DNA of 61,550 nt, filler included, from 5 parts of 5 records of this genome joined end to end with filler, not necessarily neighbours in it; one strand, 5' to 3'. Counted from the whole stretch's first letter, positions 1-20,045 are shown. A program made the numbers and translations. Notes: generated by a model from the sequence alone, not told the origin.

Positions 1-2
1 AC

Positions 3-1025
3 CTAAGATCTGTTGAGTTCCTGGAACCGTGCCATATTAATGGCCTGATCTCTTTCAAGAACCCTCGTCAGGATGGAAGGGTTTTTGAAAGATTCAGCCA
101 TTTCATCCACCATTTCCAGCAAAACAGCGTCACTGCTCCCCGAGCCGTATGAGACAGCCGCAATCAGATCCCCGGGCGAAGATTTTTCCAAAGCGTGAAA
201 CAGTCCGAACAAAAGGGACGGCGCATAAAGGTTGCCCAGTTTTTTTACAACCCTGAGGGCGTCTTCGGCAGCATCTTCGGCAAACCTCGATTTTTCCAGT
301 TTTTTTAATAATCCGGCGCCGCCCTTCACAAAGGGAAGGTGAATTGCCGCGCGCGAGATCTTTTCAAAAGCCATTCCGTCTTTTGAAAACAGACATTCCA
401 ACGATTTCATGATGGCTTTTTCATAAGAGGCACCATAAGCCTCCGGTTCATATCGACAAAGCGTTTCGCCGCTCAATTGCCAAAAATCATAGACCTCGCT
501 TTGATAATGGCCAAAATGATTCATTTTGGCGAAACCGTTCTTGCTGACAACCAACGCCGCGGCCCCGGCCGAAGACGGGAGATCTAAAGCCCCTCTGCCG
601 TCCTGGGGAATAAAATCGGAACAGATGATCAAGGCTTTTTCAACCCGGTCGGCCTCAATGAGACAATCCGCCGTTATAAGGGCTTCGCCCACCAGCTTGG
701 TGCTGGACCCAAAATCAAGCGTAATAATATGGGGGTGCAGATTCAACGATTGCGACAAGAGGACACCAACCGATTTTTTCTGAAAAGGGGGGCTCACACT
801 CCCCCATAATAGGGCACCGATCTCTTGTGGATTGACGCCGCCAAGTCGAAGCGCCATTTTGGCCGCCTCAAATCCCATGGTCACCACATCCTCATCCAGA
901 TTGGGAACCGCCATGCTCTCAACCCTTGTTTTATCGGGAACTCCGTAAAACGCGGCCAGTTTGTCCATGGGCAATCTGGTTTCGGGCACATACAACCCGT
1001 AGCTTTCTATGCAACCCATCTTCAC
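3..1025 (-). CDS. HMG-CoA synthase / KAS III-like fold protein, probably non-catalytic
   Basis: Archaeal-type HMGS motifs (YGLYVP, DEDVVTMGFEAA, AGAAALVV, GNLY, VSYGSG). The catalytic Cys position reads DFGSSTKLV, where active archaeal enzymes read DxEFACK. Confidence 0.75.
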   Translation of the reverse strand: MKMGCIESYGLYVPETRLPMDKLAAFYGVPDKTRVESMAVPNLDEDVVTMGFEAAKMALRLGGVNPQEIGALLWGSVSPPFQKKSVGVLLSQSLNLHPHIITLDFGSSTKLVGEALITADCLIEADRVEKALIICSDFIPQDGRGALDLPSSAGAAALVVSKNGFAKMNHFGHYQSEVYDFWQLSGETLCRYEPEAYGASYEKAIMKSLECLFSKDGMAFEKISRAAIHLPFVKGGAGLLKKLEKSRFAEDAAEDALRVVKKLGNLYAPSLLFGLFHALEKSSPGDLIAAVSYGSGSSDAVLLEMVDEMAESFKNPSILTRVLERDQAINMARFQELNRS

Positions 1026-1062
1026 CTCAATTCCTTAAAGTTTTCCAAATTCCATTTTTTTA

Positions 1063-2646
1063 CTACCTGGAAACCTTGTAGCCCGCCTTTTCCCTGTCCC
1101 AGGTCTTGCTTGTGACCCCTTGTTCCCTCAAAACATTTTTTTGGACCTTCTCGTTGGTGGTCTTCGGGAGACGATCTTGAAACCGTATGAACCTGGGCAC
1201 CGCAAAATAGGGCATGCGTGGCACACACCAGTCCATCAATTCTTCATGGGGGATCTCTTTGCCGTCTTTTGGGACAATGACGATCATCACTTCGTCCTCG
1301 GAGTATTCAGACGAAACCGAGATGGCGGCACATTCGGAAACGGCAGGATTGCTTAGGAAAACGCGTTCCACCTCGAACGAGGAAATATTTTCACCCCTGC
1401 GTCGGATATAGTCTTTGACACGGTCTCGAAAGTAAACATAGCCGTTCTCATCCATAACGCCGGCATCGCCCGTATGGAAATAAAAGTTGCGAAAAACTTC
1501 AACCGTCTTTTCCGGCATCTTGTAGTAGCCCAGACACATGGTAAAAGGGGCCCTGCTCCGAACCACAATCTCGCCCAGGGTATGGGGGGGCACCTCATTG
1601 TCGTCGCCGTCAAAAATCTTTACCTCGTAATTGGGTGTTGCTTTACCACAGGAGCCGACAACCGGTTTGTCCCAGGGATTATAGGTGATCATCCCGGTTT
1701 CCGTGAGGCCGTACCCTTCGATCACTTTGAGTTGGAATCTTTTCTCAAATTCCTTGTAAATATTGGCGGGCATTGGCGCGGCCATGCAGGCCCGGACCGA
1801 ATTATCTTTCTCTTCCGCACATTCGGGTTGACTGTAGGTGAACGGCGCCATTGCACCCAGAGAATTGAATATGGTGGCCCCTGAAGCCTTAATCTGCTTC
1901 CAGAATTTGCTTGCGGAAAACTGTTTATAAATCACCGCCTTGGCGCCGCACATCAGAGAAGGCAGGATGCAAAGAAGCTGTGCATTTGCGTGGAAAAGGG
2001 GGAGACAGGTGAAAAAAATGTCATCGGGCGTACATCGCATGGCCTGAAGATATTCTTCCGCGGCCATCAAGGCTTCGCCGGCCGGGGCCAATACGCCCTT
2101 GGAAGGTCCGGTTGTGCCGGAAGTATAAATCATGGCCACCGGATCGCCCTTCTTCAGCGCTGCCCGGGGCGTTCCGGAAGCGCCTTCCAGGAGGTCCTCA
2201 AAGGTATGCATTTCAAACCGCATGGATGGCAGATCGGGATTCCCTTCCCCGGAAAAGACCACCATGTGTTTCAGATGGACCAGATCGTTTTCCACAAATT
2301 GCACGCGACCCAGGAGCTGTTCATCTACAACCAATACCGTGGATTCCGAATTATTGATGATGTAAGAGAGAAAATCCCCCCTGTTGGCCAGGTTAATGGG
2401 TACTTCCACGGCCCCCAGTTTATTGGCGCCGAACCAGACGTAAGCGATCTCCAGGGAGTTGGGCATAAACATGGCCACCTTCCCCTCTTTTTCCACCCCG
2501 AGTCGCGCCAACCCGTCTGCAACGCGGTCCGTTATCTCATTCAATTCCCGGTATGATGCCGATTGCCTGTTTTCAAAAGTCAACGCAATCCTGTCGCCGT
2601 ATTTTAAAGCCCCTTCTTGTAAAATAGAGCCTATAATATTCCCCAT
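1063..2646 (-). CDS. Acyl-CoA synthetase / CoA ligase (CaiC-like AMP-binding enzyme)
   Basis: YTSGTTGPSKGV AMP-binding loop, EGYGLTETG, FHTGD, DRVKDYIRRRGENISSFEVE, C-terminal LPKT..EKVQK. Confidence 0.92.
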   Translation of the reverse strand: MGNIIGSILQEGALKYGDRIALTFENRQSASYRELNEITDRVADGLARLGVEKEGKVAMFMPNSLEIAYVWFGANKLGAVEVPINLANRGDFLSYIINNSESTVLVVDEQLLGRVQFVENDLVHLKHMVVFSGEGNPDLPSMRFEMHTFEDLLEGASGTPRAALKKGDPVAMIYTSGTTGPSKGVLAPAGEALMAAEEYLQAMRCTPDDIFFTCLPLFHANAQLLCILPSLMCGAKAVIYKQFSASKFWKQIKASGATIFNSLGAMAPFTYSQPECAEEKDNSVRACMAAPMPANIYKEFEKRFQLKVIEGYGLTETGMITYNPWDKPVVGSCGKATPNYEVKIFDGDDNEVPPHTLGEIVVRSRAPFTMCLGYYKMPEKTVEVFRNFYFHTGDAGVMDENGYVYFRDRVKDYIRRRGENISSFEVERVFLSNPAVSECAAISVSSEYSEDEVMIVIVPKDGKEIPHEELMDWCVPRMPYFAVPRFIRFQDRLPKTTNEKVQKNVLREQGVTSKTWDREKAGYKVSR

Positions 2647-2674
2647 TTAGAACCCCTCCTTAATATTTCGACCT

Positions 2675-3139
2675 TCAAATCCTCTCTGAAAGAACTTCCT
2701 GCACGCGAAGAAGGGTCACCGGATGCATCATCATTCCCTTGACTCGAATCTTGCCGATAAAAAGCTTGCCCACGATATGGCGCAAGCCGAAAGGGGTATA
2801 GTATCCCACTGGAAACCCCAAGAAACATTTCACGTTGGTCATGGCGATGAGACTTTCCAGGGAGCCGGAAATGGACAAGGTCGGCTTTGTTTGTACGCCG
2901 TCGACAACCGTCAGATTTCCTTTGTGAAATATCAATGAAACCATCCGCCCTGTATCAGTGGCGTTGATTGCCACGGAACAATCCATTTTCATGGAACGTT
3001 TTTCTTTTCGTGGGTCATTGTTACAGTTGTTTTTGATTAGATCAGCAAATGTATCAACCAAAGGGTTCGGTTCCTCTCCCTCTTTTCTTGTGATTTGAAG
3101 CATGGCCGCATTTCTCCTCATCATTATCTTCGGATACAT
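2675..3139 (-). CDS. SCP2 (sterol carrier)-like lipid-binding protein; start codon uncertain
   Basis: Pattern LIFHKGNLTVVDG..KPTLSISGSLE...LFIGKIRVKG resembles the SCP2 fold; lies within the operon. Confidence 0.6.
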   Translation of the reverse strand: MYPKIMMRRNAAMLQITRKEGEEPNPLVDTFADLIKNNCNNDPRKEKRSMKMDCSVAINATDTGRMVSLIFHKGNLTVVDGVQTKPTLSISGSLESLIAMTNVKCFLGFPVGYYTPFGLRHIVGKLFIGKIRVKGMMMHPVTLLRVQEVLSERI

Positions 3140-3187
3140 CTGGAGCCCGGCTTATGGACCGCCATAAACCTGGAATGAGAGAAACAG

Positions 3188-3231
3188 GGACGGAAAGACG
3201 GCATCCGAAGATCGCCGTCCTTCTTTCGTCC
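3188..3231 (-). terminator. Intergenic stem-loop with C(UUCG)G tetraloop (mRNA stabiliser or partial terminator)
   Basis: GACGGC-ATC-CGAA-GAT-C-GCCGTC core with outer GGACGGAA/TTTCGTCC arms; the loop reads TTCG on the transcribed (-) strand. Confidence 0.55.
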
Positions 3232-3242
3232 ATGTTGCCAAC

Positions 3243-3632
3243 CTAAAGAGCGCCGACTTTCTTGCCGAAAACAACATATCCCTTGCCCGCCACATTGATC
3301 AGGGATGAAGTAATATCGATTTTAATGCGTCTTTCCTTTACCAATTTGGCATAAATCGCTAAAAAATCATCGTGATCTTTTGCCTCGGCCAGCTCATCGA
3401 GGGCGTCGTAATCGAAATACCGGATGACACAGTCAGGTTTTCCATGGGGCCATGGCCCTTCCTCGATGAACCATTTTGTTCCTTCATTGTGAAAATTGAA
3501 AACTTCCTTGCCGTTTTCCAAGTCCAGATTAAAAAAGGCATCTTTTTCTTCTTTCACATAATGCAACACACTCAAACCGATTGAACCCTCCGGCGTCCAC
3601 ATCTTTCTTAGTTTTTCAAGGGTATTGCTCAT
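3243..3632 (-). CDS. Small SCP2-like hypothetical protein (paralog of 18246-18644)
   Basis: Good RBS (GAGAGGAGG). W.I.EG...PD..I..YDALDELA..DF pattern is shared with 18246-18644. Confidence 0.55.
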   Translation of the reverse strand: MSNTLEKLRKMWTPEGSIGLSVLHYVKEEKDAFFNLDLENGKEVFNFHNEGTKWFIEEGPWPHGKPDCVIRYFDYDALDELAEAKDHDDFLAIYAKLVKERRIKIDITSSLINVAGKGYVVFGKKVGAL

Positions 3633-3661
3633 TTTAAAGCCTCCTCTCTCAAATCTGATAT

Positions 3662-4489
3662 TTATTCTTCATATTTTTTGGCGATACCTGGACCGTATTT
3701 GTCCACGATATCCGACATTTCCTCTAAAACCGCATAAACGGCATCCATGGCTTCAGGCGGTTCGGGGGTCGCATTGAAAGCGGGACTTTCCCACCACCGG
3801 TCCTTGTTCTTGACGATCGGATTCCCCCCGCCGGGAAAGGCGCCAAAATGGGTGGGACAGGTTCGGAAAAGGCTGCCCATGGCATCCTCATAGGAAAATT
3901 TCTTGGTCATTGACGATCGACTCCACCATACAAGGTCCCGGGTCGGCCCCAGGGGCAGACCGATAAATGCCGAATTGCCGGGCATGTAACCGAGGTTTGC
4001 AGCCATGGCCCCGGAATCGGCCTGAATTCTGTTGTCAACCCTGTATTGGGCGGCCGCGGCGGCGGCCCAATCACAGGCCATTCCATAATCGAGCACCTTC
4101 CAGTTGCATGAAGGGCCCACCCAAAGCTGACCCATGTTTTTGTTTTCCTTAGCGTATTTGTTGAATTCATTGCAGGTGGGAAAGCCGCAGGCCCCGCAAT
4201 CCCACCCCATCTGCGAACTTGTGAGATCCCCGAATAAAAGCAAAAGGACCGGTGGATTCCCTGCATCATAATTGGTTTTAAAGGTTTCATAGTCCCAGCG
4301 GACAAATTGATTCACCTTGGCCAGCGCTCCCAGCATCTCGATAATCGGGACCAGATCATCACCGGTCACGATCTCGGCTTCCAATTTGGTATGCCCGGTC
4401 ATCTGAGGGGCCTTGAAGAATGCATTGATGCAGTGTTTGGCAACGTCGAGCAAATGTTCCCGGCTCGCCTCTTTCCCTGAATATCTCAT
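3662..4489 (-). CDS. DUF2148-like ferredoxin-domain protein (copy A)
   Basis: AFFKAPQMTG, DCGACGFPTC...GPSC, VDNRIQ. ATG at 4489 overlaps the upstream stop (ATGA). Confidence 0.7.
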   Translation of the reverse strand: MRYSGKEASREHLLDVAKHCINAFFKAPQMTGHTKLEAEIVTGDDLVPIIEMLGALAKVNQFVRWDYETFKTNYDAGNPPVLLLLFGDLTSSQMGWDCGACGFPTCNEFNKYAKENKNMGQLWVGPSCNWKVLDYGMACDWAAAAAAQYRVDNRIQADSGAMAANLGYMPGNSAFIGLPLGPTRDLVWWSRSSMTKKFSYEDAMGSLFRTCPTHFGAFPGGGNPIVKNKDRWWESPAFNATPEPPEAMDAVYAVLEEMSDIVDKYGPGIAKKYEE

Positions 4490-5271
4490 TTTTCCCCCTC
4501 CTCTTTTCTCTTGGGTATCCATTTACGGTAATCGAAAGTGGTAACGGTTCTGCCCGTAATATATTGTTTTCGGGCCACATCCACGATCTTTCCCATATTG
4601 AAGAGGTGATAATCAGGACATATATCCACAAAGGGGTTTTTTGCCTGCCCGGCCACCAGAATGCCTGCCACCATGCCTGAATTGGGACAGTAGCCGAGTT
4701 GCTGGCCCGCCAGGCCCACGCTCATGAATGGGCGGGCATCCACAAAACTGTTGGCGGCCTGCCACAATGCGGAGCCCAGGGCATACCCCAAATCATCCAC
4801 CCTGGCACTGCAAAGGGGCCCCTTGATGGGGGTATCGGATCGTCGATCCGTAATGTCCACCATTCCAAAACGGTGAGAACGATTTTCATAGAAAAAACTG
4901 CAATCGGCCCGCCCTCCGCAAAGCCCGCAACCGGCATCCAGAGGCGTTTCGTGGCACCGATAATTCCCTAAAAACAGAACGGCGTCGCTTTCCCGGACCA
5001 TGACCGCCTCGTATTTGGCACTTTCTTCCAAACGCGAATTGGTATATGCCAATTCTTCCATCTTTCGCGCCAGCTTTTCCTGTTCCTCCTGACCGTAAAC
5101 AATATGCCCTTCAATTTGTTGCACCCCCCCTGCAAAAGGCGCCGTCATTGCGCCGATCAGCATCTGCCGGGTAATTTGCAGCACAGCCTCCTTTCGCCTC
5201 AAATCGGAAGGCGAGTAGGGCGGCCATTCTTGATAATGTTCCTCTCCTCTGAATTCATTGTAATCTTTCAC
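4486..5271 (-). CDS. DUF2148-like ferredoxin-domain protein (copy B)
   Basis: GAMTAPFAGG, GCGLCGGRADC...GPLC, DLGYALGSA, VDARPFMSVG, KNPFVD. Confidence 0.7.
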   Translation of the reverse strand: MKDYNEFRGEEHYQEWPPYSPSDLRRKEAVLQITRQMLIGAMTAPFAGGVQQIEGHIVYGQEEQEKLARKMEELAYTNSRLEESAKYEAVMVRESDAVLFLGNYRCHETPLDAGCGLCGGRADCSFFYENRSHRFGMVDITDRRSDTPIKGPLCSARVDDLGYALGSALWQAANSFVDARPFMSVGLAGQQLGYCPNSGMVAGILVAGQAKNPFVDICPDYHLFNMGKIVDVARKQYITGRTVTTFDYRKWIPKRKEEGEK

Positions 5272-5352
5272 TATTCCCTCCTTTCCATGTCAAATCAAGA
5301 ATAAGTTATGATGTGAACGAAACAAGCGCCGGAAATGACACAATGTCTTCCC

Positions 5353-6606
5353 TTATGTGAAACGGAATTTCTCAAGATCGCAGCACAAGCTGACTTGATC
5401 CAGCAAACCTTGAAAGATGTGTGAAAGAGGGCAACAACCCTCAACAAAAAGACCCAGGTCCCGATGTTCCCTGGTGCAGTCCCCAACCACAAGAACGGGG
5501 CCGTCCATGGTCTCGGGGACCCGGCAATTCTTCCCCACAATGATTGAAATCGGTTGCATCAAATCATCCAAAATACCCATGGCCAGAAGTTGATCGAGAT
5601 AAATGCGCAGATGGCTGATACAGCCATCGCAAGCTTCTCCCTGATACACGAAAATATTCGGGTGGATGCCTGTCAGACGCATATCGGGACGTCGAAATTT
5701 TCTTGCACATGCGTCAATATGGGCCCCAACCGGAGAAATGGAATGAAAATTGTAGTCTGTGAATTCATCCTGTTCGGCCATTGCCAATACCGGAATATCT
5801 CTTGGATTAAATCCCATGAGCATGGCGCCCACGGCATCAACCGCAACCGGATTGAGACCTGCCACCAAAACATTCATGTCGTCTATGAGATCATCCGGAA
5901 AAGGGGACGTGGGGCCCTGTCCCTGCATGGCCCACAGACCGTCAATAATGGATAAATGGGGCCTGATGATTTTGATGAGGTCCAGTAGTTTCGCCGTTAA
6001 ATTGGAATCATGAAATTTCTTCTTTTCCGAAGTGGGCACCACCCCCTGATTCAATTTGATATTTAAGGTTACGCCGCACGTCATGTGAACTTTCAAGTGC
6101 GGCACAAAGATGAGCGTATCGGCCTCCAAAATCGTCTTCGGCACAAGGCACCGGGTCAAAACCTTCGGCCCGGGGATCATCACCTGCTCATGGATATCGT
6201 TCTCCAAAGCCGCCAACCTCACATGATTTCGCTCGGCCACCCGTGAAAGGCCGCAGGCTTCAAAACACTCAAAGGTTGTTGAACCGATATTGATTTCCTC
6301 GAGCATATGGAAATCTGCGGCATTTTCCGCGATAATGATTTCTCGGGGCAAACTTTGCTCCCGGAGGAGAAGGATCAGGGCCTCCACTACCCGGGGATCG
6401 GTGGTATGAACGCCGGGGGGACCGGAAAATCCAGCGTTCACCTTGATGACGACCACGGAGCCCGGTTCAACCATGGAACGAATCCCACCCAGAGGTGCAA
6501 GGCATTGGGAAAGCATCTCCTTTACGACCTGTAAATCCCGGGAGGAATAGGCGGCCGGAGTCCCCGGACTCTCTGCCGCACGGGCGATGGATACCAGGTC
6601 TTTCAT
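5353..6606 (-). CDS. DUF362 family Fe-S protein
   Basis: VVIKVN, TTDPRVV, PHLKVH..GVTLNIK, IIDGLWAMQGQGP, NPVAVDAV. C-terminal CDGC...GDC...GCCP motif. Confidence 0.8.
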   Translation of the reverse strand: MKDLVSIARAAESPGTPAAYSSRDLQVVKEMLSQCLAPLGGIRSMVEPGSVVVIKVNAGFSGPPGVHTTDPRVVEALILLLREQSLPREIIIAENAADFHMLEEINIGSTTFECFEACGLSRVAERNHVRLAALENDIHEQVMIPGPKVLTRCLVPKTILEADTLIFVPHLKVHMTCGVTLNIKLNQGVVPTSEKKKFHDSNLTAKLLDLIKIIRPHLSIIDGLWAMQGQGPTSPFPDDLIDDMNVLVAGLNPVAVDAVGAMLMGFNPRDIPVLAMAEQDEFTDYNFHSISPVGAHIDACARKFRRPDMRLTGIHPNIFVYQGEACDGCISHLRIYLDQLLAMGILDDLMQPISIIVGKNCRVPETMDGPVLVVGDCTREHRDLGLFVEGCCPLSHIFQGLLDQVSLCCDLEKFRFT

Positions 6607-6651
6607 GGCCGTACCATCCGGATTTTCTCCAGGTTGAATGAACCGGAGACT

Positions 6652-8142: not shown

Positions 8143-8303
8143 AAACGCACCCGCTTTTTCTTCTCCTCGTTTATTTGCTTGGTGCGTTCTTCTCTTTCCT
8201 CCGGGGTGAGCTTTTCCCATTCCTCCTTTTCCCTGGCCTCGCGGATTTTCTTTGCCGCCAGGAATTGCTCAACCCATTTTGCGGTCGGTGTTCCCGAGGT
8301 CAT
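8136..8303 (-). CDS. 55-aa charged hypothetical peptide
   Basis: MTSGTPTAKWVEQFL...KKKRVRLW; strong RBS (GAGGGGAGG) upstream; stop overlaps the radical SAM start. Confidence 0.6.
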   Translation of the reverse strand: MTSGTPTAKWVEQFLAAKKIREAREKEEWEKLTPEEREERTKQINEEKKKRVRLW

Positions 8304-8385
8304 GACGCGCCTCCCCTCAAATAACAATGCTTCCCATGCGCCGGTTGTTCCACGGTTCCAAAACGGGCATTCGAAACAGCGTTCC

Positions 8386-9750: not shown

Positions 9751-9815
9751 ACCTCCCTTTCTTGGATTAAGCCATCAAAACAAATACTCTCAACCGAGGC
9801 AGTCATACTGGATAT

Positions 9816-9832: not shown

Positions 9833-9846
9833 AACATAAAAATCCT

Positions 9847-12780: not shown

Positions 12781-12886
12781 ATCTCCGCACTCATTATAAA
12801 ATCCAATAACAAAGCCATTAAGAACATGGCGAAACGACCTTTCACCATTGGGCATATGAGCGCTCAAACCCAGTCTTCGATGAAAT

Positions 12887-12926
12887 GTGTCCTTATTGGG
12901 ACACCGTGATGGCCGCATAAGGCCAC
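12887..12926. promoter_or_regulatory. Paired 18-bp palindromic enhancer (UAS) sites
   Basis: GTGTCCTTATTGGGACAC (12887-12904) and ATGGCCGCATAAGGCCAC (12909-12926), offset 22 bp. Confidence 0.7.
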
Positions 12927-12958
12927 GGCAACCGCTCATGGCTTAAATTATCATGCCA

Positions 12959-12971
12959 TATCAACATGTTA
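12959..12971 (+). promoter_or_regulatory. IHF binding site
   Basis: TATCAACATGTTA matches WATCAANNNNTTR exactly; lies between the UAS and -24. Confidence 0.65.
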
Positions 12972-12985
12972 ATACAACATTTTAT

Positions 12986-13002
12986 TAGGCACGAATTTTG
13001 CT
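12986..13002 (+). promoter_or_regulatory. Sigma-54 -24/-12 promoter of the etf operon
   Basis: TAGGCACGAATTTTGCT: GG-N10-GC. Confidence 0.8.
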
Positions 13003-13096
13003 ATTATATGTTGACCATTCGTAAAGATCAAAAAACATAACCGCCATCACATAAGATCCCTATGAATAAGATTTCTAAAGATTATGGGAGGAAAGC

Positions 13097-13843
13097 ATGA
13101 AAATTCTGGTCACGGCGAAACGTGTTACGGATCCGGACATGAAAATCGTACTCAAGCCGGATGGATCAGGCATCGAGCTATCCAGCATGAGCTTCAAAAC
13201 AAACCCTTTTGATGAAATCGCCATTGAGGAAGCGCTACGCATCAGGGGGGCCAAGGGCGGCGAAGTGGTCGTTGTCAGTATCGGAGATGAGAATTCAATC
13301 ACTGAAATCAGGGCCGGGCTGGCCATGGGCGCTGACCGCGGCGTCCTTGTGAAAACCGAAGATCAGTTGGATTCCAATGCCGTTGCCCTGATTCTTGCCA
13401 AAGTCATAGAACGGGAGCAGCCTGACCTGGTGGTACTGGGAAAACAGGCCGTTGATGTGGATGACAATCAGGTGGCTCAGATGTTAGCCGAGTATATGGG
13501 CTGGGGGCAGGCGTGCTTCGCTTCAAAAATTGCCTTGAACGGCACCACGGCCAGGGTGCACAGGGAAGTGGATGGCGGCATTGAAGTGGTGGAAATTGAT
13601 CTCCCCGGCATCATCAGTACGGATCTTCGCCTGAACGAACCCCGTTATCCCAAGGTGTCGGACGTACTCAAAGCCGACCGAAAAAAAGTTGAAACCTTAA
13701 CACCGATCGACCTGGGCGCGGACATCACACCCAGATTGGTCGTCAAAGGATTTGTTGATCCCCCGCAGCGGCAGGGCGGGCATCTGGTGGCGGATGTGGA
13801 TGAATTGGTCAAGGCCCTCAAGGAGGAGGCAAAGGTATTGTAG
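13097..13843 (+). CDS. etfB: Electron transfer flavoprotein beta subunit
   Basis: MKILV..KRV.DP, NPFDEIAIEEAL, LAMGADRG, GKQAVD, DLRLNEPRY. Confidence 0.95.
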   Translation: MKILVTAKRVTDPDMKIVLKPDGSGIELSSMSFKTNPFDEIAIEEALRIRGAKGGEVVVVSIGDENSITEIRAGLAMGADRGVLVKTEDQLDSNAVALILAKVIEREQPDLVVLGKQAVDVDDNQVAQMLAEYMGWGQACFASKIALNGTTARVHREVDGGIEVVEIDLPGIISTDLRLNEPRYPKVSDVLKADRKKVETLTPIDLGADITPRLVVKGFVDPPQRQGGHLVADVDELVKALKEEAKVL

Positions 13844-13898
13844 GAAATCGTCAAGACCGAAGGGCCTGATGCACACAAAATTCATGTTTTAAGGAGAA

Positions 13899-14864
13899 AT
13901 GAATATGGCAGGTGTTCTAATCGTTGCAGAGCATTGGAAGGGAGAATTGAAACGGGCCACGCTCAATGCCATTACCTTCGGCAGGGAAGCCGCGGAAAAG
14001 ATGGAAACCGAGCTGTATCTCCTGGTTGTTGGAAATAATGTCACCGGCATGGCAGACAAACTCAAGGATTTCGGCGCTTCGAAAATCTTTACGGCCGACG
14101 ACCCTCACCTTGAACACTACACCGCGGAAACATGGGGTCATGCCGTGGCTGAAGCCGCAAAGTTCTGTGATGCAAAAATCGTCGGCATGAGTTCCGGCAC
14201 CACGGGAAGAGACCTCATGCCGCGCGTTGCGGCCAAACTGGCGGCAGGTATGGCCTCAAGCGTCCTCGGTTTTGACGGTCGGGGTTTCACCCGGGAAATG
14301 TGGGCCGGCAGCGTCATTGCAAAGGTGGAAATCAAAACAGCGGTTCAGGTTGTAACCATCCAGGGGACCCATTTTGCTCCGGCTGAGCCTCTGGGAAGTG
14401 AAACACCGATGGAACCCCTGAACATCTCGGTACCCAGGAGCAAAACGCGTTTCGTGGAAATGCAGGAAACCCAGAGTGAACGTCCCGACCCCACCGAAGC
14501 CGAGGTCGTCATCTCCGGAGGGCGTGGAATGGCAGGCGCCGAAAACTTCAAGCTCCTGGAGGAAGTTGCGGATCTGTTCGGCGGCGCCGTGGGCGCCACG
14601 CGGGCGGCCGTGGACTCCGGCTGGGTGTCAAACGACCTGCAGGTGGGACAGACCGGAAAAAAAGTGGCGCCCGAGCTCTACCTTGCCGTGGGTCTCTCGG
14701 GATCCATTCAACATATTGCCGGCATGAAAAGCAGCAAAGTCATTGTTGCCATCAATAAGGATGAAGAGGCGCCCATCCACACGGTTGCAGACTTTGGTCT
14801 GGTTGCGGATCTGTTTAAGGCGGTACCCGAATTAACCCGGGCTTTGAGAAAGGAGCTTGCCTGA
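13899..14864 (+). CDS. etfA: Electron transfer flavoprotein alpha subunit
   Basis: SGGRG, GATRAAVD, QVGQTGK, GLSGSIQH, AINKD. Confidence 0.95.
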   Translation: MNMAGVLIVAEHWKGELKRATLNAITFGREAAEKMETELYLLVVGNNVTGMADKLKDFGASKIFTADDPHLEHYTAETWGHAVAEAAKFCDAKIVGMSSGTTGRDLMPRVAAKLAAGMASSVLGFDGRGFTREMWAGSVIAKVEIKTAVQVVTIQGTHFAPAEPLGSETPMEPLNISVPRSKTRFVEMQETQSERPDPTEAEVVISGGRGMAGAENFKLLEEVADLFGGAVGATRAAVDSGWVSNDLQVGQTGKKVAPELYLAVGLSGSIQHIAGMKSSKVIVAINKDEEAPIHTVADFGLVADLFKAVPELTRALRKELA

Positions 14865-14867
14865 TAA

Positions 14868-16910
14868 ATGAATCCTGTTGCCATGGGTATTTTGCTTTTT
14901 GCCACATTGTTGCTTTTCACCTTGTCCATGTTGCGCCGAATTCTGCCGCTATTTGCCATGCAACCCCAGGTCCGATGGGACCAACCCGCCGTGCGTTTGG
15001 CCGGGATGTTCAAATTTGCATTGGGTCAAGCCAGGCTTTTCCGGCGCTTTGAATTCCTGCATGGTTTGGCTCATATTCTGATCTTCTGGGGATTTATGGT
15101 CTTGAGCATCAACACAATCCATCTTGTGGGCCGCGGTTTCGCTGCAGGCTGGACCTTGCCCGGATTCCATCATGGCGCCGTTTTAGGCATGGTTTACACA
15201 CCGATCAAGGATTTTTTCGTTCTCGCGGTGATCGTCGGGACTCTCATAGCGCTCTGTCGAAGGATATTTATGAAGCCCGACCGTATGACCCTCTCCTTAG
15301 AAGCCAACCTGATTCTGTTGTGGATCTTCGTCATGATGGTGCTCGACATTCTCTATGGCGGCACCCTGTTCATCATAAATCCCCACAGCCCCGAGAAAGC
15401 GGGGGCCTTCATGGGGCTTTTGGGTCTACGCATCCTTACGGGCCTCGGGCTGACGCCCGATTCCCAATTAACCGCTTTTCTGCACGGCATGGGCTTGTGG
15501 GGTCATGTGGTGATGGTTTTCGCTTTCCTGAACTACTTGCCCTATGGAAAACATTTTCACGTTGTGACTTCCCTTCCCGGTGTTTTCGCGGGGAACCTCA
15601 ATGAAAAGGGCGCGTTGTCAAAACAGGACTTTGAAAGTGAAAAGCTCATCCTGGGCGCGGGCAGGCTGGAGGAACTGCCCTGGAAGCGTGCACTCGACAT
15701 GTACAACTGTACCGAATGCGGCCGTTGTCAGGAGAACTGTCCCGCTTACCTGTCGGATAAGCCCCTGTCGCCCAAGCGTCTCATGATGGACTCCCGAAAC
15801 CATCTCAAGAAAAAAACCCCCCTAATGTGTCGCGCCGGCGCCCATAAGCTTAATCACAAGCCTGAAAGGGCCAAGGGAATCCTCGATTTCTGGAAAGGGC
15901 CAACCCTTACGGGCGAAGCAATTGAAGAAGAGGCCCTCTGGTCCTGCACCACATGCGGCAATTGCATTGAAAACTGCCCGTTACTGATAGAACACGTTGC
16001 CCATGTGGTCGATATGCGTAGATACCTGGTGCAGGAGGAGAGCCGCTTTCCAAAGGAGCTGGCCTCTGTTTACAAGGGCATGGAAAACATGTCCAATCCC
16101 TGGGGCATGGCTTCCAACGCCCGTGCAGACTGGTTCCAGGGGATGGGCGTGAAAACGCCGTATGAAGACAAAGATTTCGAGTACCTGTTCTATGTGGGGT
16201 GTGCGGGTTCCTTCGACGACCGCAATAAGAAGATATCCCTTGCCATGGTTCGTTTGATGAAAAAGGCGAACATAAGATTTTTTTGTTTGGGAAATGAAGA
16301 AAAATGCTGTGGTGAAACGGCCCGCCGCCTCGGCAATGAATTCCTATCCCAAAGAATGATGAAAACCAATGTGGATCGCTTTAATGACTTGGGCGTGAAA
16401 AAAATTATCACCGCCTGCCCCCATTGCCACAACACCATAAAGAATGAATACGGCCAGTTCGGCGGTCATTACCAAGTGATTCACCACACACAACTTATCC
16501 AACGACTTATCCGTGAAGGAATGCTGGAACCCAACCTCAATTTCCATGGGGATGGGCGGGTCGTTTACCACGACTCCTGCTACCTGGGACGTTACAACGG
16601 TCTTTACCATACGCCAAGGGAAATAGCGCGGGCCGTACCCCGCCTTGACCTCGTTGAGGCCGAAAAAAACCGGCGCATGAGCTTTTGCTGTGGCGCAGGG
16701 GGCGGGCGGATGTGGATGGAGGAAAAGAGAGGCAAGCGTATCAACAGGATGCGTTGCGATCAACTCTTGGAAACCGGGGCCAAGACCTTTGCGGTCGCTT
16801 GCCCCTATTGTCTCATCATGCTTGATGACGAAATCAGGGAAAAAGCCCTTGAAGATAAAATCAAGGTCCTGGATGTGGCTCAGATCGTCAATAACGCTGT
16901 CTCGGACTAA
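14868..16910 (+). CDS. Membrane-bound Fe-S oxidoreductase (ETF:menaquinone oxidoreductase type; TM domain + two [4Fe-4S] + CCG domains)
   Basis: N-terminal TM helices with His residues, CTECGRCQENCP, CTTCGNCIENCP, CCG motifs (KCCG, FCCGAGGG); directly after etfAB. Confidence 0.85.
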   Translation: MNPVAMGILLFATLLLFTLSMLRRILPLFAMQPQVRWDQPAVRLAGMFKFALGQARLFRRFEFLHGLAHILIFWGFMVLSINTIHLVGRGFAAGWTLPGFHHGAVLGMVYTPIKDFFVLAVIVGTLIALCRRIFMKPDRMTLSLEANLILLWIFVMMVLDILYGGTLFIINPHSPEKAGAFMGLLGLRILTGLGLTPDSQLTAFLHGMGLWGHVVMVFAFLNYLPYGKHFHVVTSLPGVFAGNLNEKGALSKQDFESEKLILGAGRLEELPWKRALDMYNCTECGRCQENCPAYLSDKPLSPKRLMMDSRNHLKKKTPLMCRAGAHKLNHKPERAKGILDFWKGPTLTGEAIEEEALWSCTTCGNCIENCPLLIEHVAHVVDMRRYLVQEESRFPKELASVYKGMENMSNPWGMASNARADWFQGMGVKTPYEDKDFEYLFYVGCAGSFDDRNKKISLAMVRLMKKANIRFFCLGNEEKCCGETARRLGNEFLSQRMMKTNVDRFNDLGVKKIITACPHCHNTIKNEYGQFGGHYQVIHHTQLIQRLIREGMLEPNLNFHGDGRVVYHDSCYLGRYNGLYHTPREIARAVPRLDLVEAEKNRRMSFCCGAGGGRMWMEEKRGKRINRMRCDQLLETGAKTFAVACPYCLIMLDDEIREKALEDKIKVLDVAQIVNNAVSD

Positions 16911-16921
16911 AATCAGGAGGA

Positions 16922-18172
16922 ATGTCAATGTATACGGAACTGAATCTCAGGCTTACGGAACGTCAGGAAGCGCTTAAAACGAGTGTTCACAAATTCGCAA
17001 AGGAAGTGTTTCGTCCCGCGGGTGAGCAGATCGAAAAGATGGATCCCGATGACATTGCCGAAAAGGGCTCTCTCTGGTGGGACTGCAAAAAACAATTCAG
17101 AGAGATAGAATTGCATACGAGCTTCATTCCTGAAAAATTCGGCGGTTTGGGCATGGGACCCATGGAGCACCACATCGTATGGGAGGAACTTGGATGGGGT
17201 TCCGCGGGTCTCGCCCTTTCGCAAGATGTGGACGTTTATCCCGCATCATGGTGCATGCGCATGAGCCCGAAAAATGAACGGCTGCTGGAGGAATTGGTTG
17301 AACCCTACGTCAAAGACACACAAGCCGAGATAGTCGGCTGTTGGGGAATGACGGAACCCAATCGCGGTTCGGATTCCTTGATCGCGGGGTTGCCCGAATT
17401 CAGGGATCCACAAATAACACACAATGTGAAAGCCCGTAAAGATGGCAGCAAATGGATTATTTCCGGCCAGAAAGCCGCATGGGTGTCCGATGGTCCCGCC
17501 GCAACCCATACATTGCTGTTTTTGGGCATTGATCGGTCCAAAGGCATGAAAGGCGGCGGTATCGCCGTTGTTCCCCTTGACCTTCCCGGCGTGTCCAAAG
17601 GCCCCAATCTCCATAAATTGGGGCAGGTCGATCTTCCGCAAGGGGAGCTTTTTTTCGATGATGTGGAAATTCCCGAGGAATATATGGTTGCGGGACCGGA
17701 TCGCTACGAGTTTTGGGTCCAACAAGTACTTAGCGTTGCAAACTGCGGCATGTCTTCGGTTTTTACGGGCGTGGCCAGGGCCGCATTGGAACTGGCCCTT
17801 GAATACTCCAAGGAACGCATTCAAGGGGGCAAACCGATAAATCGGCATCAGCTGATTCAAAAAAAGCTTTTCGACATGTTTGTGAGGGTGGAAACGGCAC
17901 GGGCTTTTTCCAGAGCCGCCGTGGAGTATTGTTTTTCGGTAATTCCGGCGCCGCTGGAATACGCCGTTTCCGCAAAGGTCTACTGTACCCAGGCGGCCTA
18001 CCAAAATGCCGACGACGCCCTGCAAATCTATGGCGGCTACGGTTTGAGCAAGGAGTACCCCATCGAAAAGCTGTACCGGGATGCAAGGGCCGCCCTGATT
18101 GAAGACGGAACCAGCGAAGTACTCAGTTTGATCGGGGCGCACAACATCATTAAAACCTATTTTCCACACTAA
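16922..18172 (+). CDS. Acyl-CoA dehydrogenase
   Basis: WGMTEPNRGSD, ISGQKAWVS, ERIQGGKPI, QIYGGYG, IEDGT. Confidence 0.92.
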   Translation: MSMYTELNLRLTERQEALKTSVHKFAKEVFRPAGEQIEKMDPDDIAEKGSLWWDCKKQFREIELHTSFIPEKFGGLGMGPMEHHIVWEELGWGSAGLALSQDVDVYPASWCMRMSPKNERLLEELVEPYVKDTQAEIVGCWGMTEPNRGSDSLIAGLPEFRDPQITHNVKARKDGSKWIISGQKAAWVSDGPAATHTLLFLGIDRSKGMKGGGIAVVPLDLPGVSKGPNLHKLGQVDLPQGELFFDDVEIPEEYMVAGPDRYEFWVQQVLSVANCGMSSVFTGVARAALELALEYSKERIQGGKPINRHQLIQKKLFDMFVRVETARAFSRAAVEYCFSVIPAPLEYAVSAKVYCTQAAYQNADDALQIYGGYGLSKEYPIEKLYRDARAALIEDGTSEVLSLIGAHNIIKTYFPH

Positions 18173-18245
18173 TGTTATCATAAATTCATCCCTGCAGATT
18201 GAACGGTCAGTTTTTTTTAAAACCTTCAAATTAAGGAGTTAAAAG

Positions 18246-18644
18246 ATGGATGGTTTTACAATCAACAACGGCGCGGAGCTGAAATGGATGCTGGAGAGGA
18301 TCTGGACAACCCCTCTCGGTTTAGACGCCTCCCAGGATCTTCATGAGGGCGTTCTGTTAGAACAATATCATGAGAACACTTTTGTGGCATATGCACTGAA
18401 AACGACGGGAGGCTGGGAAGTCCATGAAGGGAAGGCGCCGTCGCTGCCGAATATGAGGCTCTTCTATTCCGGGGACGCCTTGGAAAAGCTGGCGCAATCT
18501 GAAAACCTGGAAGATTTTTCCACCCGCCTGCAAGATCTGATTGGAGATAGGGAACTGGTATTTATTCCCCTGCGGTCGCCCGACAAACTGGCCGAAGCCG
18601 GTTTCGGGGATTTTGCCGAGCGTCTCGGATTGCCCGGAAAATAG
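18246..18644 (+). CDS. Small SCP2-like hypothetical protein (paralog of 3243-3632)
   Basis: RBS AAGGAG; WEVHEG..P..LFYSGDALEKLA..EDF aligns by eye with 3243-3632. Confidence 0.55.
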   Translation: MDGFTINNGAELKWMLERIWTTPLGLDASQDLHEGVLLEQYHENTFVAYALKTTGGWEVHEGKAPSLPNMRLFYSGDALEKLAQSENLEDFSTRLQDLIGDRELVFIPLRSPDKLAEAGFGDFAERLGLPGK

Positions 18645-18728
18645 GTGTAAACCATGCTTGACGATGAAAAACATTATTTTAGAATCAAAAACAGGCCGTT
18701 TTCCGGCCGCCCGGGGGGAAATTGACCA

Positions 18729-20045
18729 ATGGGCAAGAAAGAGATTCAACGACTGAAGCATGCATTTGAACATACGCCCACATTATTCCAACTGCTATCA
18801 ACCGTGCGTTCCCGTCGTGTGGGGAAAGGATACTCCCTTGAATCGGGTCGGCCCGATACCCATGGCGTCACGGGCCGCGAATTGAATAGCCGAAAGGGGC
18901 CGCTCTGTTTCTCTTCCCAAAAAGATCCGGAACCGCTCAGTGAGCTTGAGACAGCCTTGCTTTGCTGGGCCGCCTGTGGGCCCAACGGCACCATTACGGG
19001 AGACATTGCGGGCACAAACAACCTCGGAACCCTCATGGGCTTTGGGGGCAGGACGATCCCTTCCGCGGCCAATGATGGATGCGTGGATCTCATCTTTACA
19101 AACGACGACGGCACTTTCCTGTACCGCCCGACACCTCAACGCGCCAAAACCATTGAAATTGAATCCGAAGCAGACTACCCGAAGATTCTGGAATGGTTCC
19201 GACAAGGTGTGATTCAGCTCAGCAAAAGGCGCCTGGATATCGATTGGACCATAACTCCCGGACGTCCCATGGGCATTTGGCAATATAATCTGAACAGGCC
19301 CGGCACCACATGGTTCATTCCCGTGGTGGATATTGCAAAAGGGATGGTCAATCTCTATTTTAGTGTTTTTGAACATATGCAATGGCTCATAACGGACGAC
19401 GAAACAGGCAAACCGTGCGGTTTGGAAGAATGGGCCAAGCCGGGAATGCTGGAATTGCCCATAACCCAGCACGCCTACGAAGAAGCGATGCTCCATATGG
19501 CGGATTACCAGCACGGCATGTTGGTCCAAAACCTTCGCCTGGCGGCGGAAGCCATGGGGCTCGGCTCCTGGATATTTGGAGGATTTTGCGAAGATCTGGT
19601 TTTCGGCGGCTTCAGGCCTTTGGCCAAAGGGCTCCGCTTCAGATACAAAACCATAAACGGCAGAAGAAATTACGTTGGAATCCCCAAAGTGCTGGAAGGT
19701 TTCGGCCTTCCCTGTGCGTGGAATAAGTCGGTGGATGCTCTGGTGGATCGGGTTTTGGAACAAAAAAAGAAAGCCATGGCCCAACTCCCCTATCCGCACC
19801 GAATTGAATCGGAAATACGCCCGATCCTGGATACCGGCCCTTCTGACTGGTGTTTAAAAGCCGTTAAATCCGTGTTGAATTATCTTTATGAAAAATACGG
19901 AAGATTCCCGGTCCATTTTTCCACATTTCATTCAAATCTACACGCTCAAATCCATCATTTGGACACCGATTTTTATGACAACTCCCTAAAGGACGGCTAT
20001 GTCACCACATGTCATCGAAATCACGATAACATGTGGCACAAATGA
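18729..20045 (+). CDS. Long nitroreductase-like uncharacterised protein, copy 2
   Basis: Paralog of 8386-9750 along its whole length (STVRSRR, LCWAACGP, GRTIP, NRPGTT, QNLRLAAEAMGLGSW, QIHHLD, WHK). Confidence 0.6.
   Translation: MGKKEIQRLKHAFEHTPTLFQLLSTVRSRRVGKGYSLESGRPDTHGVTGRELNSRKGPLCFSSQKDPEPLSELETALLCWAACGPNGTITGDIAGTNNLGTLMGFGGRTIPSAANDGCVDLIFTNDDGTFLYRPTPQRAKTIEIESEADYPKILEWFRQGVIQLSKRRLDIDWTITPGRPMGIWQYNLNRPGTTWFIPVVDIAKGMVNLYFSVFEHMQWLITDDETGKPCGLEEWAKPGMLELPITQHAYEEAMLHMADYQHGMLVQNLRLAAEAMGLGSWIFGGFCEDLVFGGFRPLAKGLRFRYKTINGRRNYVGIPKVLEGFGLPCAWNKSVDALVDRVLEQKKKAMAQLPYPHRIESEIRPILDTGPSDWCLKAVKSVLNYLYEKYGRFPVHFSTFHSNLHAQIHHLDTDFYDNSLKDGYVTTCHRNHDNMWHK

Follow-up and report, generated by a model that had tools for sequence, protein, structure and literature searches.

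A sigma-54-controlled cluster joining an ACAD-ETF-EMO electron module to nitroreductase-fold, Fe-S and SCP2-like proteins: a possible anaerobic catabolic regulon

Introduction

A passage of PMC8805022 describes the ACAD-ETF-EMO system of Syntrophus aciditrophicus, and the cluster reported here resembles it in that EtfB and EtfA of the electron-transfer flavoprotein (ETF), a membrane protein whose N-terminal part is hydrophobic, with two 4Fe-4S motifs and two CCG domains (EMO, the ETF:methylmenaquinone oxidoreductase), and an acyl-CoA dehydrogenase (ACAD) are encoded side by side on one strand. The cluster lies at positions 3-20045 of a 61.5 kb stretch of DNA (the window, that is, the whole stretch analysed) and comprises two divergent operons, the left one on the minus strand and the right one on the plus strand, with one sigma-54 activator gene between them. 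Unlike the Syntrophus module, it is wired by promoter and by paralogy to six proteins annotated without a function, and it has no hydratase or hydroxyacyl-CoA dehydrogenase. The cluster is read here, tentatively and at a probability of roughly 0.45, as a catabolic regulon for an anaerobic pathway acting on a hydrophobic carboxylic acid.

The remaining proteins have described counterparts at greater distance. FMN nitroreductases (3hoi and 8cqs; BmdC, McbC, ThcOx and AlbA) share the core fold, a central helix motif and an N-terminal Arg motif with the two nitroreductase-fold proteins of the cluster, named NtrL1 and NtrL2; NtrL differs from them in its length (438-454 aa against about 190-260 aa), in an identity of at most 16%, in a conserved His-rich C-terminal domain, and in falling below the Pfam cut-off without an NCBIfam model. 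The archaeal thiolase/HMG-CoA synthase (HMGS)/DUF35 system (6esq) and the PhlACB acyltransferase (5m3k) are the best structural-sequence relatives of a 340-aa protein of the left operon, and a thiolase and a DUF35 protein occur in related clusters (loci L001 and L002); unlike these systems, the 340-aa protein has its catalytic Cys replaced and scores below all HMGS cut-offs, and no thiolase or DUF35 protein was found in the window, where the operon runs off the edge.

UbiT, UbiU and UbiV form a sterol carrier protein 2 (SCP2) carrier system serving enzymes on prenylated substrates, and UbiT and UbiJ present lipid intermediates in quinone biosynthesis. A 132-aa protein of the right operon resembles such carriers (UbiJ-SCP2, 6h6p) in its predicted SCP2 fold and in being encoded with Fe-S enzymes, and differs from UbiJ, UbiT, UbiU and UbiV in that it has no sequence-level SCP2 membership and that no U32-peptidase-type hydroxylase is present in the cluster. 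Lastly, the radical SAM enzymes AhbD and NirJ share the radical SAM core and the SPASM domain (7 Cys) with the enzyme of the left operon and are its best NCBIfam matches; the latter reaches less than half of their cut-offs (216.8 against 500 bits for AhbD), has the motif CX4CX2C and carries an extra N-terminal CxxC...CxxC domain.

Gene content and layout of the two operons

The gene map was based on the listing of open reading frames (ORFs) and on Pfam and NCBIfam scans, and gave the following features.

3-1025, minus strand: HMG-CoA-synthase-like protein of 340 aa, the last visible gene of the left operon
1063-2646, minus strand: AMP-forming acyl-CoA ligase of 527 aa (Pfam AMP-binding, 249 bits, and AMP-binding_C)
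2675-3139, minus strand: 154-aa SCP2-like protein (sub-threshold Pfam SCP2 match and language-model features)
3243-3632, minus strand: 129-aa protein, a divergent paralogue of the 132-aa SCP2-fold protein
3662-4522, minus strand: DUF2148a, 286 aa (Pfam DUF2148, 46.6 bits)
4486-5271, minus strand: DUF2148b, 261 aa (Pfam DUF2148, 54.2 bits)
5353-6606, minus strand: DUF362 protein, 417 aa (Pfam DUF362, 148.5 bits)
6652-8220, minus strand: radical SAM/SPASM enzyme, ORF of 522 aa (Radical_SAM, 79 bits; SPASM, 41.6 bits)
8386-9750, minus strand: NtrL1, nitroreductase-fold protein of 454 aa (51% identical to NtrL2; sub-threshold Pfam Nitroreductase match)
9817-9830, minus strand: sigma-54 -24/-12 element of the left operon (exact GGCAC-N5-TTGC)
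9848-9859: left palindrome with AACATGTT core, 17 nt upstream of the -24 element
9892-9907: left inverted repeat, candidate activator site, about 70 bp upstream of the -24 element
9998-12780, plus strand: sigma-54 enhancer-binding protein (the activator), 927 aa (ATG at 9998; the ORF opens at a TTG at 9955)
12910-12925: right inverted repeat, candidate activator site, about 70 bp upstream of the -24 element
12963-12974: right palindrome with AACATGTT core, 17 nt upstream of the -24 element
12988-13001, plus strand: sigma-54 -24/-12 element of the right operon (exact GGCAC-N5-TTGC)
13097-13843, plus strand: EtfB (Pfam ETF, 126.5 bits)
13899-14864, plus strand: EtfA (Pfam ETF and ETF_alpha)
14868-16910, plus strand: EMO-like membrane Fe-S/CCG oxidoreductase, 680 aa (two CCG domains, 123.7 bits; Fer4 dicluster)
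16922-18172, plus strand: ACAD, 416 aa (all three ACAD domains)
18246-18644, plus strand: 132-aa SCP2-fold protein (predicted structure and Foldseek)
18729-20045, plus strand: NtrL2, nitroreductase-fold protein of 438 aa (AlphaFold2 model and Foldseek)

The gaps within the operons were 3-165 nt. The window opens at the stop codon of the HMGS-like gene, and the end of the left operon is out of sight. A preliminary description of this DNA had claimed two operons around one activator with matching promoters, and the coordinates, gene content and promoter elements were as claimed. The Pfam and NCBIfam scans agreed with the content it gave for the left operon (two DUF2148 proteins, DUF362, a SPASM radical SAM enzyme, a CoA ligase and a degenerate HMGS), and the Pfam scans with that given for the right operon (EtfAB, a membrane Fe-S oxidoreductase and an ACAD). 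Each operon was also said to carry one nitroreductase-like protein of about 440 aa, and the two proved to be paralogues with 51% identity over their full length (E 8e-167). The further claim of one small SCP2-like paralogue per operon was right for the pair of 129 and 132 aa and missed a third SCP2-like gene, that of the 154-aa protein.

Promoter architecture and the activator

Within the window, exact GGCAC-N5-TTGC occurred only at the two places listed above, each just upstream of one operon, while 31 matches were obtained with one mismatch allowed. The sequence AACATGTTAATA was exact at both palindromes (9848-9859 and 12963-12974); within one mismatch it gave 4 matches against 0.17 expected, and 0 of 100 shuffles reached 4. 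The AACATGTT core stood at an identical distance of 17 nt upstream of the -24 element in both promoters, and the two inverted repeats were also equally far (about 70 bp) from it. The inverted-repeat pattern was taken from its own two sites and its 3 matches against 0.40 expected are post hoc, so that for these repeats the equal spacing is the independent point, not the count. The third match (34565-34580) lay inside an ABC transporter gene and is probably due to chance.

The activator contained the domains Sigma54_activat (221.5 bits), AAA_lid_14 (74.5 bits) and HTH_8 (25.7 bits), preceded by a long, TPR-like sensor part with a weak TPR_12 match. Its orthologue in locus L003, also of 927 aa, had a weak GAF match. 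A sigma-54 element was found upstream of etfB in L003, together with a degenerate copy of the inverted repeat, and another just upstream of the NtrL1 gene in L002. The matching architecture of promoters and upstream sites argues for co-regulation of both operons as one sigma-54 regulon. The activator would sense an effector through its long N-terminal part, bind the two inverted repeats that precede the -24/-12 promoters by about 70 bp, and turn both operons on.

Related clusters in other genomes

One genome scan with a 22-sequence NtrL alignment yielded 76 loci, whose content was determined by tblastn with 17 window proteins (E<=1e-5, coverage of at least 40%). NtrL was present in 76/76 loci, relatives of the CoA ligase in 23/76, ACAD in 9/76 and the 132-aa protein in 3/76. 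DUF2148a, DUF2148b, the radical SAM enzyme and the DUF362 protein were each found in 2/76 loci, and the activator, EtfB, EtfA and the EMO-like protein each in 1/76, in all cases L003. The carboxyltransferase encoded downstream of NtrL2 (L032), the HMGS-like protein (L043) and the 154-aa protein (L046) each had a weak or isolated match in 1/76 loci, and the 129-aa protein was found in 0/76.

Genes of both operons were found in a single cluster in two Bacillota, L001 (Desulfotruncus arcticus DSM 17038) and L002 (an Ammonifex metagenome-assembled genome, MAG); therefore, the two operons belong together. In L002, the co-directional order was NtrL1, radical SAM enzyme, DUF362, NtrL2, SCP2-fold protein, CoA ligase, DUF2148b, DUF2148a, an Old Yellow Enzyme (OYE) with a pyridine-nucleotide-disulfide oxidoreductase domain, a PaaK-like ligase, an SCPx-type thiolase and ACAD. 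Next to this array stood a sigma-54 activator gene in divergent orientation, and identities to the window proteins were 40-72%. L001 contained a major facilitator superfamily (MFS) transporter, NtrL1, the radical SAM enzyme, NtrL2, SCP2, ACAD and two sigma-54 activators, and further a DUF35 protein, a thiolase, a PaaK-like ligase, two DUF2148 proteins and an OYE. L003, a Thermodesulfobacteriota MAG, kept the activator and the right operon in synteny, at 64-88% identity. The gene-neighbourhood check named in the preliminary description thus came out in its favour, the homologues co-occurring as both operons in L001 and L002 and as the right operon in L003.

In L045, a Desulfomonilaceae MAG, NtrL1 (79%) and DUF362 (63%) were followed on the same strand by a polyketide synthase (9980-21097 of the locus for the whole row). 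This synthase has more than 2690 aa with NMO, KS and AT domains, is of the polyketide or polyunsaturated fatty acid type and runs off the locus.

The NtrL family

Pfam Nitroreductase (PF00881) scored 22.5 bits for NtrL1 and 21.4 bits for NtrL2, below the cut-off of 23.5, with about 35-40 residues matched. The AlphaFold2 model of NtrL2, built from a 69-sequence alignment, had a pLDDT of 95.4 and a pTM of 0.94, and its best Foldseek matches were the FMN nitroreductases 3hoi and 8cqs (E 1.5e-5, probability 1.00), followed by azoline and cyclodipeptide oxidases. The nitroreductase-like fold, for which the preliminary description had named structure prediction and Foldseek as the check, is thus confidently predicted for NtrL2. 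The model reads as a nitroreductase core with large additions, including a C-terminal domain with conserved His, because the target TM-score to 3hoi and 8cqs is 0.66 but the query TM-score only about 0.3 (identity 12-16%). In the alignment, an N-terminal RxRR motif (Arg 27 and Arg 30 being invariant), the central helix motif and C-terminal His residues were invariant or nearly so. From the modelled fold, NtrL1 and NtrL2 are probably flavin enzymes of the FMN type, with predicted FMN binding at a dimer interface. A profile search of NtrL against PDB sequences gave nothing better than E 0.005. For the SagB dehydrogenase model TIGR03605, NtrL2 scored 18.4 bits (E 0.0012) against a cut-off of 78.4 and NtrL1 had no match. 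The predicted complex of NtrL2 with the 132-aa protein scored 0.17 against a mark of 0.34, a value that speaks neither for nor against binding.

A word search with NtrL2 returned 206 homologues, which are named, if at all, as hypothetical protein or nitroreductase. The NtrL profile scan of 1.84 billion representative proteins returned 981 at E<=1e-3, 397 at E<=1e-10 and 120 at E<=1e-30, and 0 of the 14 distant members scanned had an NCBIfam match. The family is broad (about 1000 clusters at 50% identity) and without a curated model. The closest relative of NtrL1 was P0019 (83%), which appears to lie with P0004 on one contig of 134,722 bases. One protein, P0220 (863 aa), carried an MPAB_Lcp_cat domain (rubber oxygenase/MpaB-like) at residues 101-315 fused to a complete NtrL domain at 436-859 (hhalign probability 99.9, 386 aligned columns). 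It was found by the full profile scan; the word searches, which covered lengths outside 768-919 aa, gave no NtrL fusions of at least 920 aa, which is weak evidence.

The NtrL tree had 30 rows, of which 23 were taken from the 120 homologues at E<=1e-30 and 7 were window and locus sequences. NtrL2, the L003 copy and the second copies of L001 and L002 fell in one 12-row clade (100/99), by which orthology of NtrL2 across two phyla is supported. NtrL1 and the first copies of the Bacillota formed separate well-supported clades in a polytomy within a 22-row clade of paired copies (100/99).

The SCP2-like proteins

The top 11 Foldseek matches of the 132-aa model were all SCP2 proteins (E 9e-6 to 7e-4, TM-scores 0.43-0.60), the best being UbiJ-SCP2 6h6p (E 9e-6, TM-scores 0.54/0.60), followed by sterol carrier proteins. 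The 129-aa and 132-aa proteins showed 26% identity over 74 residues in BLASTP (E 3e-6), and the 129-aa protein aligned over its full length in a multiple alignment. The Pfam scan assigned no family to the 129-aa protein and gave it no SCP2 match. The gene of the 132-aa protein adjoined that of NtrL2 in L001, L002 and L003, and for 4 of its 14 homologues the contig is as long as that of an NtrL2 homologue, which suggests that the two lie together.

The 154-aa protein had no BLAST similarity to the 132-aa protein and scored 16.4 bits with Pfam SCP2 (E 0.012) against a cut-off of 21.3. In a language-model atlas, it was linked (score 0.96, 211 shared features) to clusters that have PF02036 SCP2 in 43-46% of their members, and by these features it is the most canonical SCP2-like protein of the three. 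A hydrophobic substrate fits three SCP2-like proteins, for which ligand binding is predicted from the fold.

The ACAD-ETF-EMO module

Within residues 1-221 of the EMO-like protein there were about 5 hydrophobic segments; it also had two CxxCxxCxxxC motifs and two CCG domains, and is encoded with etfAB and ACAD. It thus shows the combination of membrane, Fe-S and CCG parts that is used to recognise EMO. By analogy with the EMO of PMC8805022, the product of 14868-16910 is predicted to contain two heme b groups and to reduce quinone with electrons from reduced ETF. EtfB and EtfA were 78% and 77% identical to the L003 proteins, and ACAD matched its L003 counterpart at 88% identity and those of L001 and L002 at 71-72%. 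The nearest PDB entries of ACAD were short- and medium-chain ACADs, which are generic relatives only. The best NCBIfam models of ACAD, EtfA and EtfB were the acryloyl-CoA reductase subunits AcrC, AcrA and AcrB, with 174, 214 and 108 bits, far below the cut-offs of 640, 600 and 475.

The other proteins of the left operon

DUF2148a and DUF2148b both exceeded the Pfam cut-off of 25 bits and are distant paralogues (24% identity, E 2e-7), with 40% and 52% identity to their respective L002 orthologues. Four Cys (C115, C118, C124 and C154 in DUF2148a) were invariant in 6/6 aligned sequences (the pair and four orthologues), which suggests that the pair are Fe-S proteins. The literature search found no paper on DUF2148. 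The DUF362 protein exceeded its cut-off (24 bits) by far, contained 14 Cys, 8 of them after residue 325, and had orthologues in L002 (49%) and L045 (63%). A passage of PMC11770544 gives DUF362 clan membership with LarA. Nothing useful was found for DUF2148b and DUF362 among PDB sequences.

The radical SAM enzyme exceeded the cut-offs for Radical_SAM (29.5 bits) and SPASM (21.5 bits); after AhbD, its best NCBIfam models were TIGR04053 and NirJ2. The motif was CX4CX2C instead of the usual CX3CX2C in 3/3 orthologues (window 6652-8220, L001 8468-9898 and L002 7172-8581), and the extra N-terminal domain and the 7 SPASM Cys were kept in all three. The true start is probably near 8103, because the orthologues start near its residue 40; this would leave about 282 nt to NtrL1.

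The HMGS-like protein scored 180.7 bits with PRK04262 (cut-off 244) and 127.9 bits with TIGR00748 (cut-off 353). Its best PDB match was the archaeal HMGS 6esq_I (E 8.6e-27), then PhlA 5m3k, and in the alignment to 6esq_I the column of the catalytic Cys was a Thr in a Ser/Thr-rich stretch. The CoA ligase scored 548 bits with NCBIfam PRK06155 (cut-off 722) and was 50% identical to the L002 ligase; its nearest PDB entry was FadD13 3r44 (E 3.3e-63), and only generic relatives were obtained.

Neighbourhoods of distant NtrL genes

For the distant loci, clustering was applied to the ORFs lying up to 8 kb from NtrL, with conservation-ranked ORF picking, which recovered NtrL itself in 74/76 loci, and recurrent neighbours were named from one representative each by Pfam and NCBIfam. 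The recurrent neighbours were a CopD-like membrane protein (38/76 loci), a 400-aa AMP-binding protein (35/76), an alpha subunit like that of ethylbenzene dehydrogenase (EBDH; 29/76), an SCPx-type thiolase (24/76), a CoA ligase (19/76), a Fer4_11 beta subunit (19/76), a small nitroreductase (16/76), a 123-aa protein (14/76), CofD (12/76), a PaaK-like ligase (11/76), a NarJ-like chaperone (11/76) and an EB_dh gamma subunit (10/76). A gene of the AMP-binding superfamily was present within 8 kb in 51/76 loci and in 33/43 of the loci of at least 15 kb, while 12/76 loci had no recurrent neighbour at all.

The ethylbenzene-dehydrogenase family includes the steroid C25 and p-cymene hydroxylases. Alpha subunits of this kind (type II DMSO-reductase, as in ethylbenzene and steroid C25 dehydrogenase) adjoin distant NtrL genes in the 29 loci counted above, and the companions are the beta (19 loci) and gamma (10) subunits and the chaperone (11); none of this type was present in the window and L001-L003. 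There were 2-3 EBDH-like alpha subunits per locus in the three loci with readable coordinates and order, for example L034 and L050, and they scored 680-720 bits against the EbdA cut-off of 2000.

Two recurrent arrays were observed. The first contained an EBDH-like alpha subunit, a gamma subunit (EB_dh), a beta subunit (Fer4_11), a NarJ-like chaperone, a second EBDH-like alpha subunit, NtrL, one or two CopD-like proteins and the 400-aa AMP-binding protein, sometimes followed by an anaerobic-sulfatase-maturase-like radical SAM protein and a third alpha subunit. It lay at about 7000-14000 in each locus and occurred in Acidimicrobiia, Actinomycetes and some Proteobacteria (loci including L020, L022, L027, L032-L034, L036, L039, L050, L059, L061, L065, L071 and L072). 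This combination of EBDH-like, NtrL and CopD-like proteins appears to be a separate, undescribed system. The second array contained NtrL, a 262-aa nitroreductase, the 123-aa protein, a thiolase and a CoA ligase, with locus-specific extras (CoA-transferase subunits, CofD, a luciferase-like monooxygenase, or CopD and two PaaK-like proteins), in L010, L012, L013, L026, L029, L056, L062, L070 and L073 of Chloroflexota, Dormiibacterota, Binatia and Actinomycetota. Module-for-module homology of the cluster types was tried and rejected: the 123-aa protein and the SCP2-fold protein, and likewise the 262-aa nitroreductase and DUF2148, showed no detectable relationship (profile probability below 1%).

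Other features of the window

A gap of 579 nt separated NtrL2 from a methylmalonyl-CoA-type carboxyltransferase gene (20625-22175; TIGR01117, 832 bits against a cut-off of 998.8), which was followed by a truncated succinyl-CoA ligase beta gene. In 1-20000, terminator-like sites (22 found against 27.5 expected) and sigma-70 promoter-like sites (19 against 17.0) were at chance level. In 19900-24300 there were 11 terminator-like sites against a shuffle mean of 5.7 (sd 2.5) and 7 sigma-70-like sites against 4.1 (sd 2.2). Rfam and tRNA scans gave no match.

The window looks like a contig join or mosaic, with truncated genes at 22257-23511, 36515-38327 and 41674-42324. The pieces were a 147-aa SucC directly next to a fragment of a radical SAM gene near 22.7 kb, and fragments of DegV, a P-type ATPase and a sigma-54 activator (from profile position 89). 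The GC content was 34-42% at 42-50 kb and 62-65% at 50-61.5 kb; no such break in GC or genes was seen inside 3-20045. A Rnf-type gene row occupied 24183-28251 (a ferredoxin-domain subunit, RnfD, an FMN_bind subunit and two Rnf-Nqr membrane subunits). In a low-GC islet at 42531-44072, a gene with a GmrSD-type restriction endonuclease N-domain was followed by one for a RiboL-PSP HEPN protein, likely a defence gene pair. The stretch 50000-61550 (64% GC) contained purine and urate catabolism genes, namely two xanthine-dehydrogenase-type molybdoenzymes, XdhC, a MobA-like protein, an amidohydrolase, a membrane urate oxidase (Urate_ox_N) and a fusion of OHCU decarboxylase and HIUase. Urate oxidation requires O2, and given this and a GC content unlike that of the 50% part, the block may come from another organism.

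Discussion

The catabolic reading starts from what was observed, that is, the gene content, the paralogy, the folds, the promoter architecture and the co-occurrence across phyla. The protein families would fit a pathway in the cytoplasm that handles a carboxylic acid of low solubility, in which the three SCP2-fold proteins would hold the substrate and intermediates and the CoA ligase would form the thioester. ACAD would desaturate the thioester, and the electrons would pass through EtfAB and the EMO-like membrane protein to the menaquinone pool. NtrL1, NtrL2, the DUF2148 pair, DUF362 and the radical SAM enzyme would act as a redox module for a step or steps beyond ordinary beta-oxidation, probably at a branch, ring or double bond. 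The HMGS-like protein, having no catalytic Cys, may be an inactive partner in a complex of the thiolase/DUF35 type that cleaves C-C bonds; the thiolase is encoded within both Bacillota clusters (L001 and L002), and in the window organism it would lie past the window edge. In this scheme we infer every enzymatic role, the oxidative direction, the cofactors and the protein-protein contacts.

Several points weigh against this reading. For the 132-aa protein, the AlphaFold2 prediction was confident in only 1 of 5 models (pLDDT 91.3), and the Pfam scan gave neither a family nor an SCP2 match. Enoyl-CoA hydratase and 3-hydroxyacyl-CoA dehydrogenase were absent by Pfam and NCBIfam among the 16 proteins of the two operons, and therefore the cluster is not a complete beta-oxidation set. 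The acryloyl-CoA reductase names, together with an EMO described as working in both directions, would also suit a reductive direction. Only 2/76 loci had the full cluster and one further locus only the right operon, the rest being single-copy relatives in other contexts; the likeness between the distant NtrL arrays and the window cluster would, on the profile comparison, not be homology. NtrL1 of the window and the first copies of the Bacillota, which fall in a polytomy, are putative orthologues only. NtrL1 and DUF362 beside a polyketide synthase in L045 hint at lipid biosynthesis. Single-copy NtrL relatives also occurred in Prauserella, Saccharomonospora and Pseudonocardia, which we take to be aerobic actinomycetes.

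The claims of the preliminary description on function fared unevenly in this light. That the cluster is undescribed was supported: it matches no set of curated families, NCBIfam gave no match or one below the cut-off for the core proteins, and the literature search found no paper on the NtrL family or the cluster. Its pathway for a hydrophobic substrate (with a steroid, isoprenoid or aromatic lipid as candidates) fits the three SCP2-like proteins; catabolism over biosynthesis is a tentative choice, given the polyketide synthase of L045. The electron module was recovered with ACAD, EtfAB and the membrane CCG/Fe-S protein as described for EMO; oxidation over reduction is likewise tentative. O2-independence was not upheld as a trait of the NtrL family, given the actinomycete relatives named above.

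A reductive direction is rather unlikely. A hydrophobic unsaturated acid would be converted to its CoA ester and its double bond or bonds reduced by menaquinol electrons through EMO, ETF and an ACAD-type enoyl-CoA reductase, with NtrL (and the OYE in Bacillota) as ene-reductases, in biohydrogenation or enoyl-CoA respiration. EMO is described in a passage of PMC8805022 as working in both directions, and EMO, ETF and ACAD as reducing enoyl-CoA in Syntrophus. The names AcrC, AcrA and AcrB point the same way, as do the OYE-type flavoenzyme within the L001 and L002 clusters and a fold match of NtrL2 to the fatty-acid enone reductase CLA-ER (4qlx); yet all three acryloyl-CoA reductase scores are far below their cut-offs, the CLA-ER match is weak (E 0.41), and simple hydrogenation needs no radical SAM enzyme, DUF362 or thiolase-family partner.

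A biosynthetic role, in which a membrane lipid, a polyketide-like lipid or a prenylated cofactor is built or modified and SCP2 presents the intermediate to Fe-S, flavin and radical SAM enzymes, is improbable as well. It would account for UbiJ-SCP2 as the best fold match of the 132-aa protein, for NtrL1 and DUF362 preceding a same-strand polyketide synthase with KS, AT and NMO domains in L045, and for distant NtrL loci with CofD, CofH/MqnC-like radical SAM and PaaK/F390-synthetase-like genes. The regulation speaks for catabolism instead: substrate-type sigma-54 activators with sensor domains accompany the genes in each of the three lineages, and an MFS transporter is encoded in L001. From what is known of the families, the ACAD-ETF-EMO chain, the CoA ligase and the thiolase/DUF35 pair are usual catabolic marks, and the Pfam scan found no glycerol-lipid, prenyltransferase or acyl-carrier genes in the window cluster.

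It is very unlikely that the operons are unrelated neighbours, the right one an ordinary fatty-acid ACAD/ETF/EMO operon and the left one an unrelated redox cluster with coincidental promoter likeness. The left operon was not seen beside the right one within the 10 kb examined in L003, and ETF and EMO were absent from the L001 and L002 stretches; against this, each operon carries one member of two paralogue pairs, genes of both are interleaved in one cluster in L001 and L002, and the sigma-54 element, palindrome and upstream repeat match at equal spacing. Maturation of a small precursor peptide (a ribosomally synthesised and post-translationally modified peptide) by a SagB-like dehydrogenase pair and the SPASM enzyme is hardly credible: peptide maturation is a common task of SPASM enzymes, NtrL2 had fold matches to the azoline oxidases BmdC, McbC and ThcOx and a weak match to TIGR03605 (E 0.0012), but that score is 18.4 against a cut-off of 78.4 bits, the closest radical SAM models (AhbD, NirJ and TIGR04053) are non-peptide ones, the conserved partners are CoA ligase, ACAD, thiolase and ETF, and the small proteins are folded and SCP2-like, of about 130 aa, not leader-core peptides.

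Under the reading as an anaerobic catabolic regulon, an isoprenoid-like or otherwise branched substrate is a lead only, taken up because of the UbiJ-like SCP2 fold, the EBDH-type neighbours of distant NtrL and the single P0220 fusion. A bolder extension, which we consider doubtful, is that NtrL1 and NtrL2, the DUF2148 pair, DUF362 and the CX4CX2C radical SAM enzyme are an O2-independent system that functionalises or cleaves isoprenoid-type (methyl-branched, unsaturated) chains presented by SCP2, while NtrL elsewhere partners EBDH-type hydroxylases or rubber-oxygenase-like fusions. If this were true, NtrL would be the signature enzyme of a widespread, unrecognised route for polyprenyl, sterol-side-chain or hydrocarbon-derived acids.

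How sulfate reducers and their relatives break down branched, cyclic or isoprenoid lipids anaerobically is poorly understood, and the process matters for carbon turnover in sediments, tar and oil. In this cluster, six proteins without an assigned function are combined with an electron outlet that is already known (ACAD-ETF-EMO), and a cultured carrier is available in Desulfotruncus arcticus DSM 17038. A function for NtrL would provide an annotation for hundreds of loci from Actinomycetota, Chloroflexota, Binatia and Thermodesulfobacteriota, and could reveal new flavin, Fe-S or radical chemistry.

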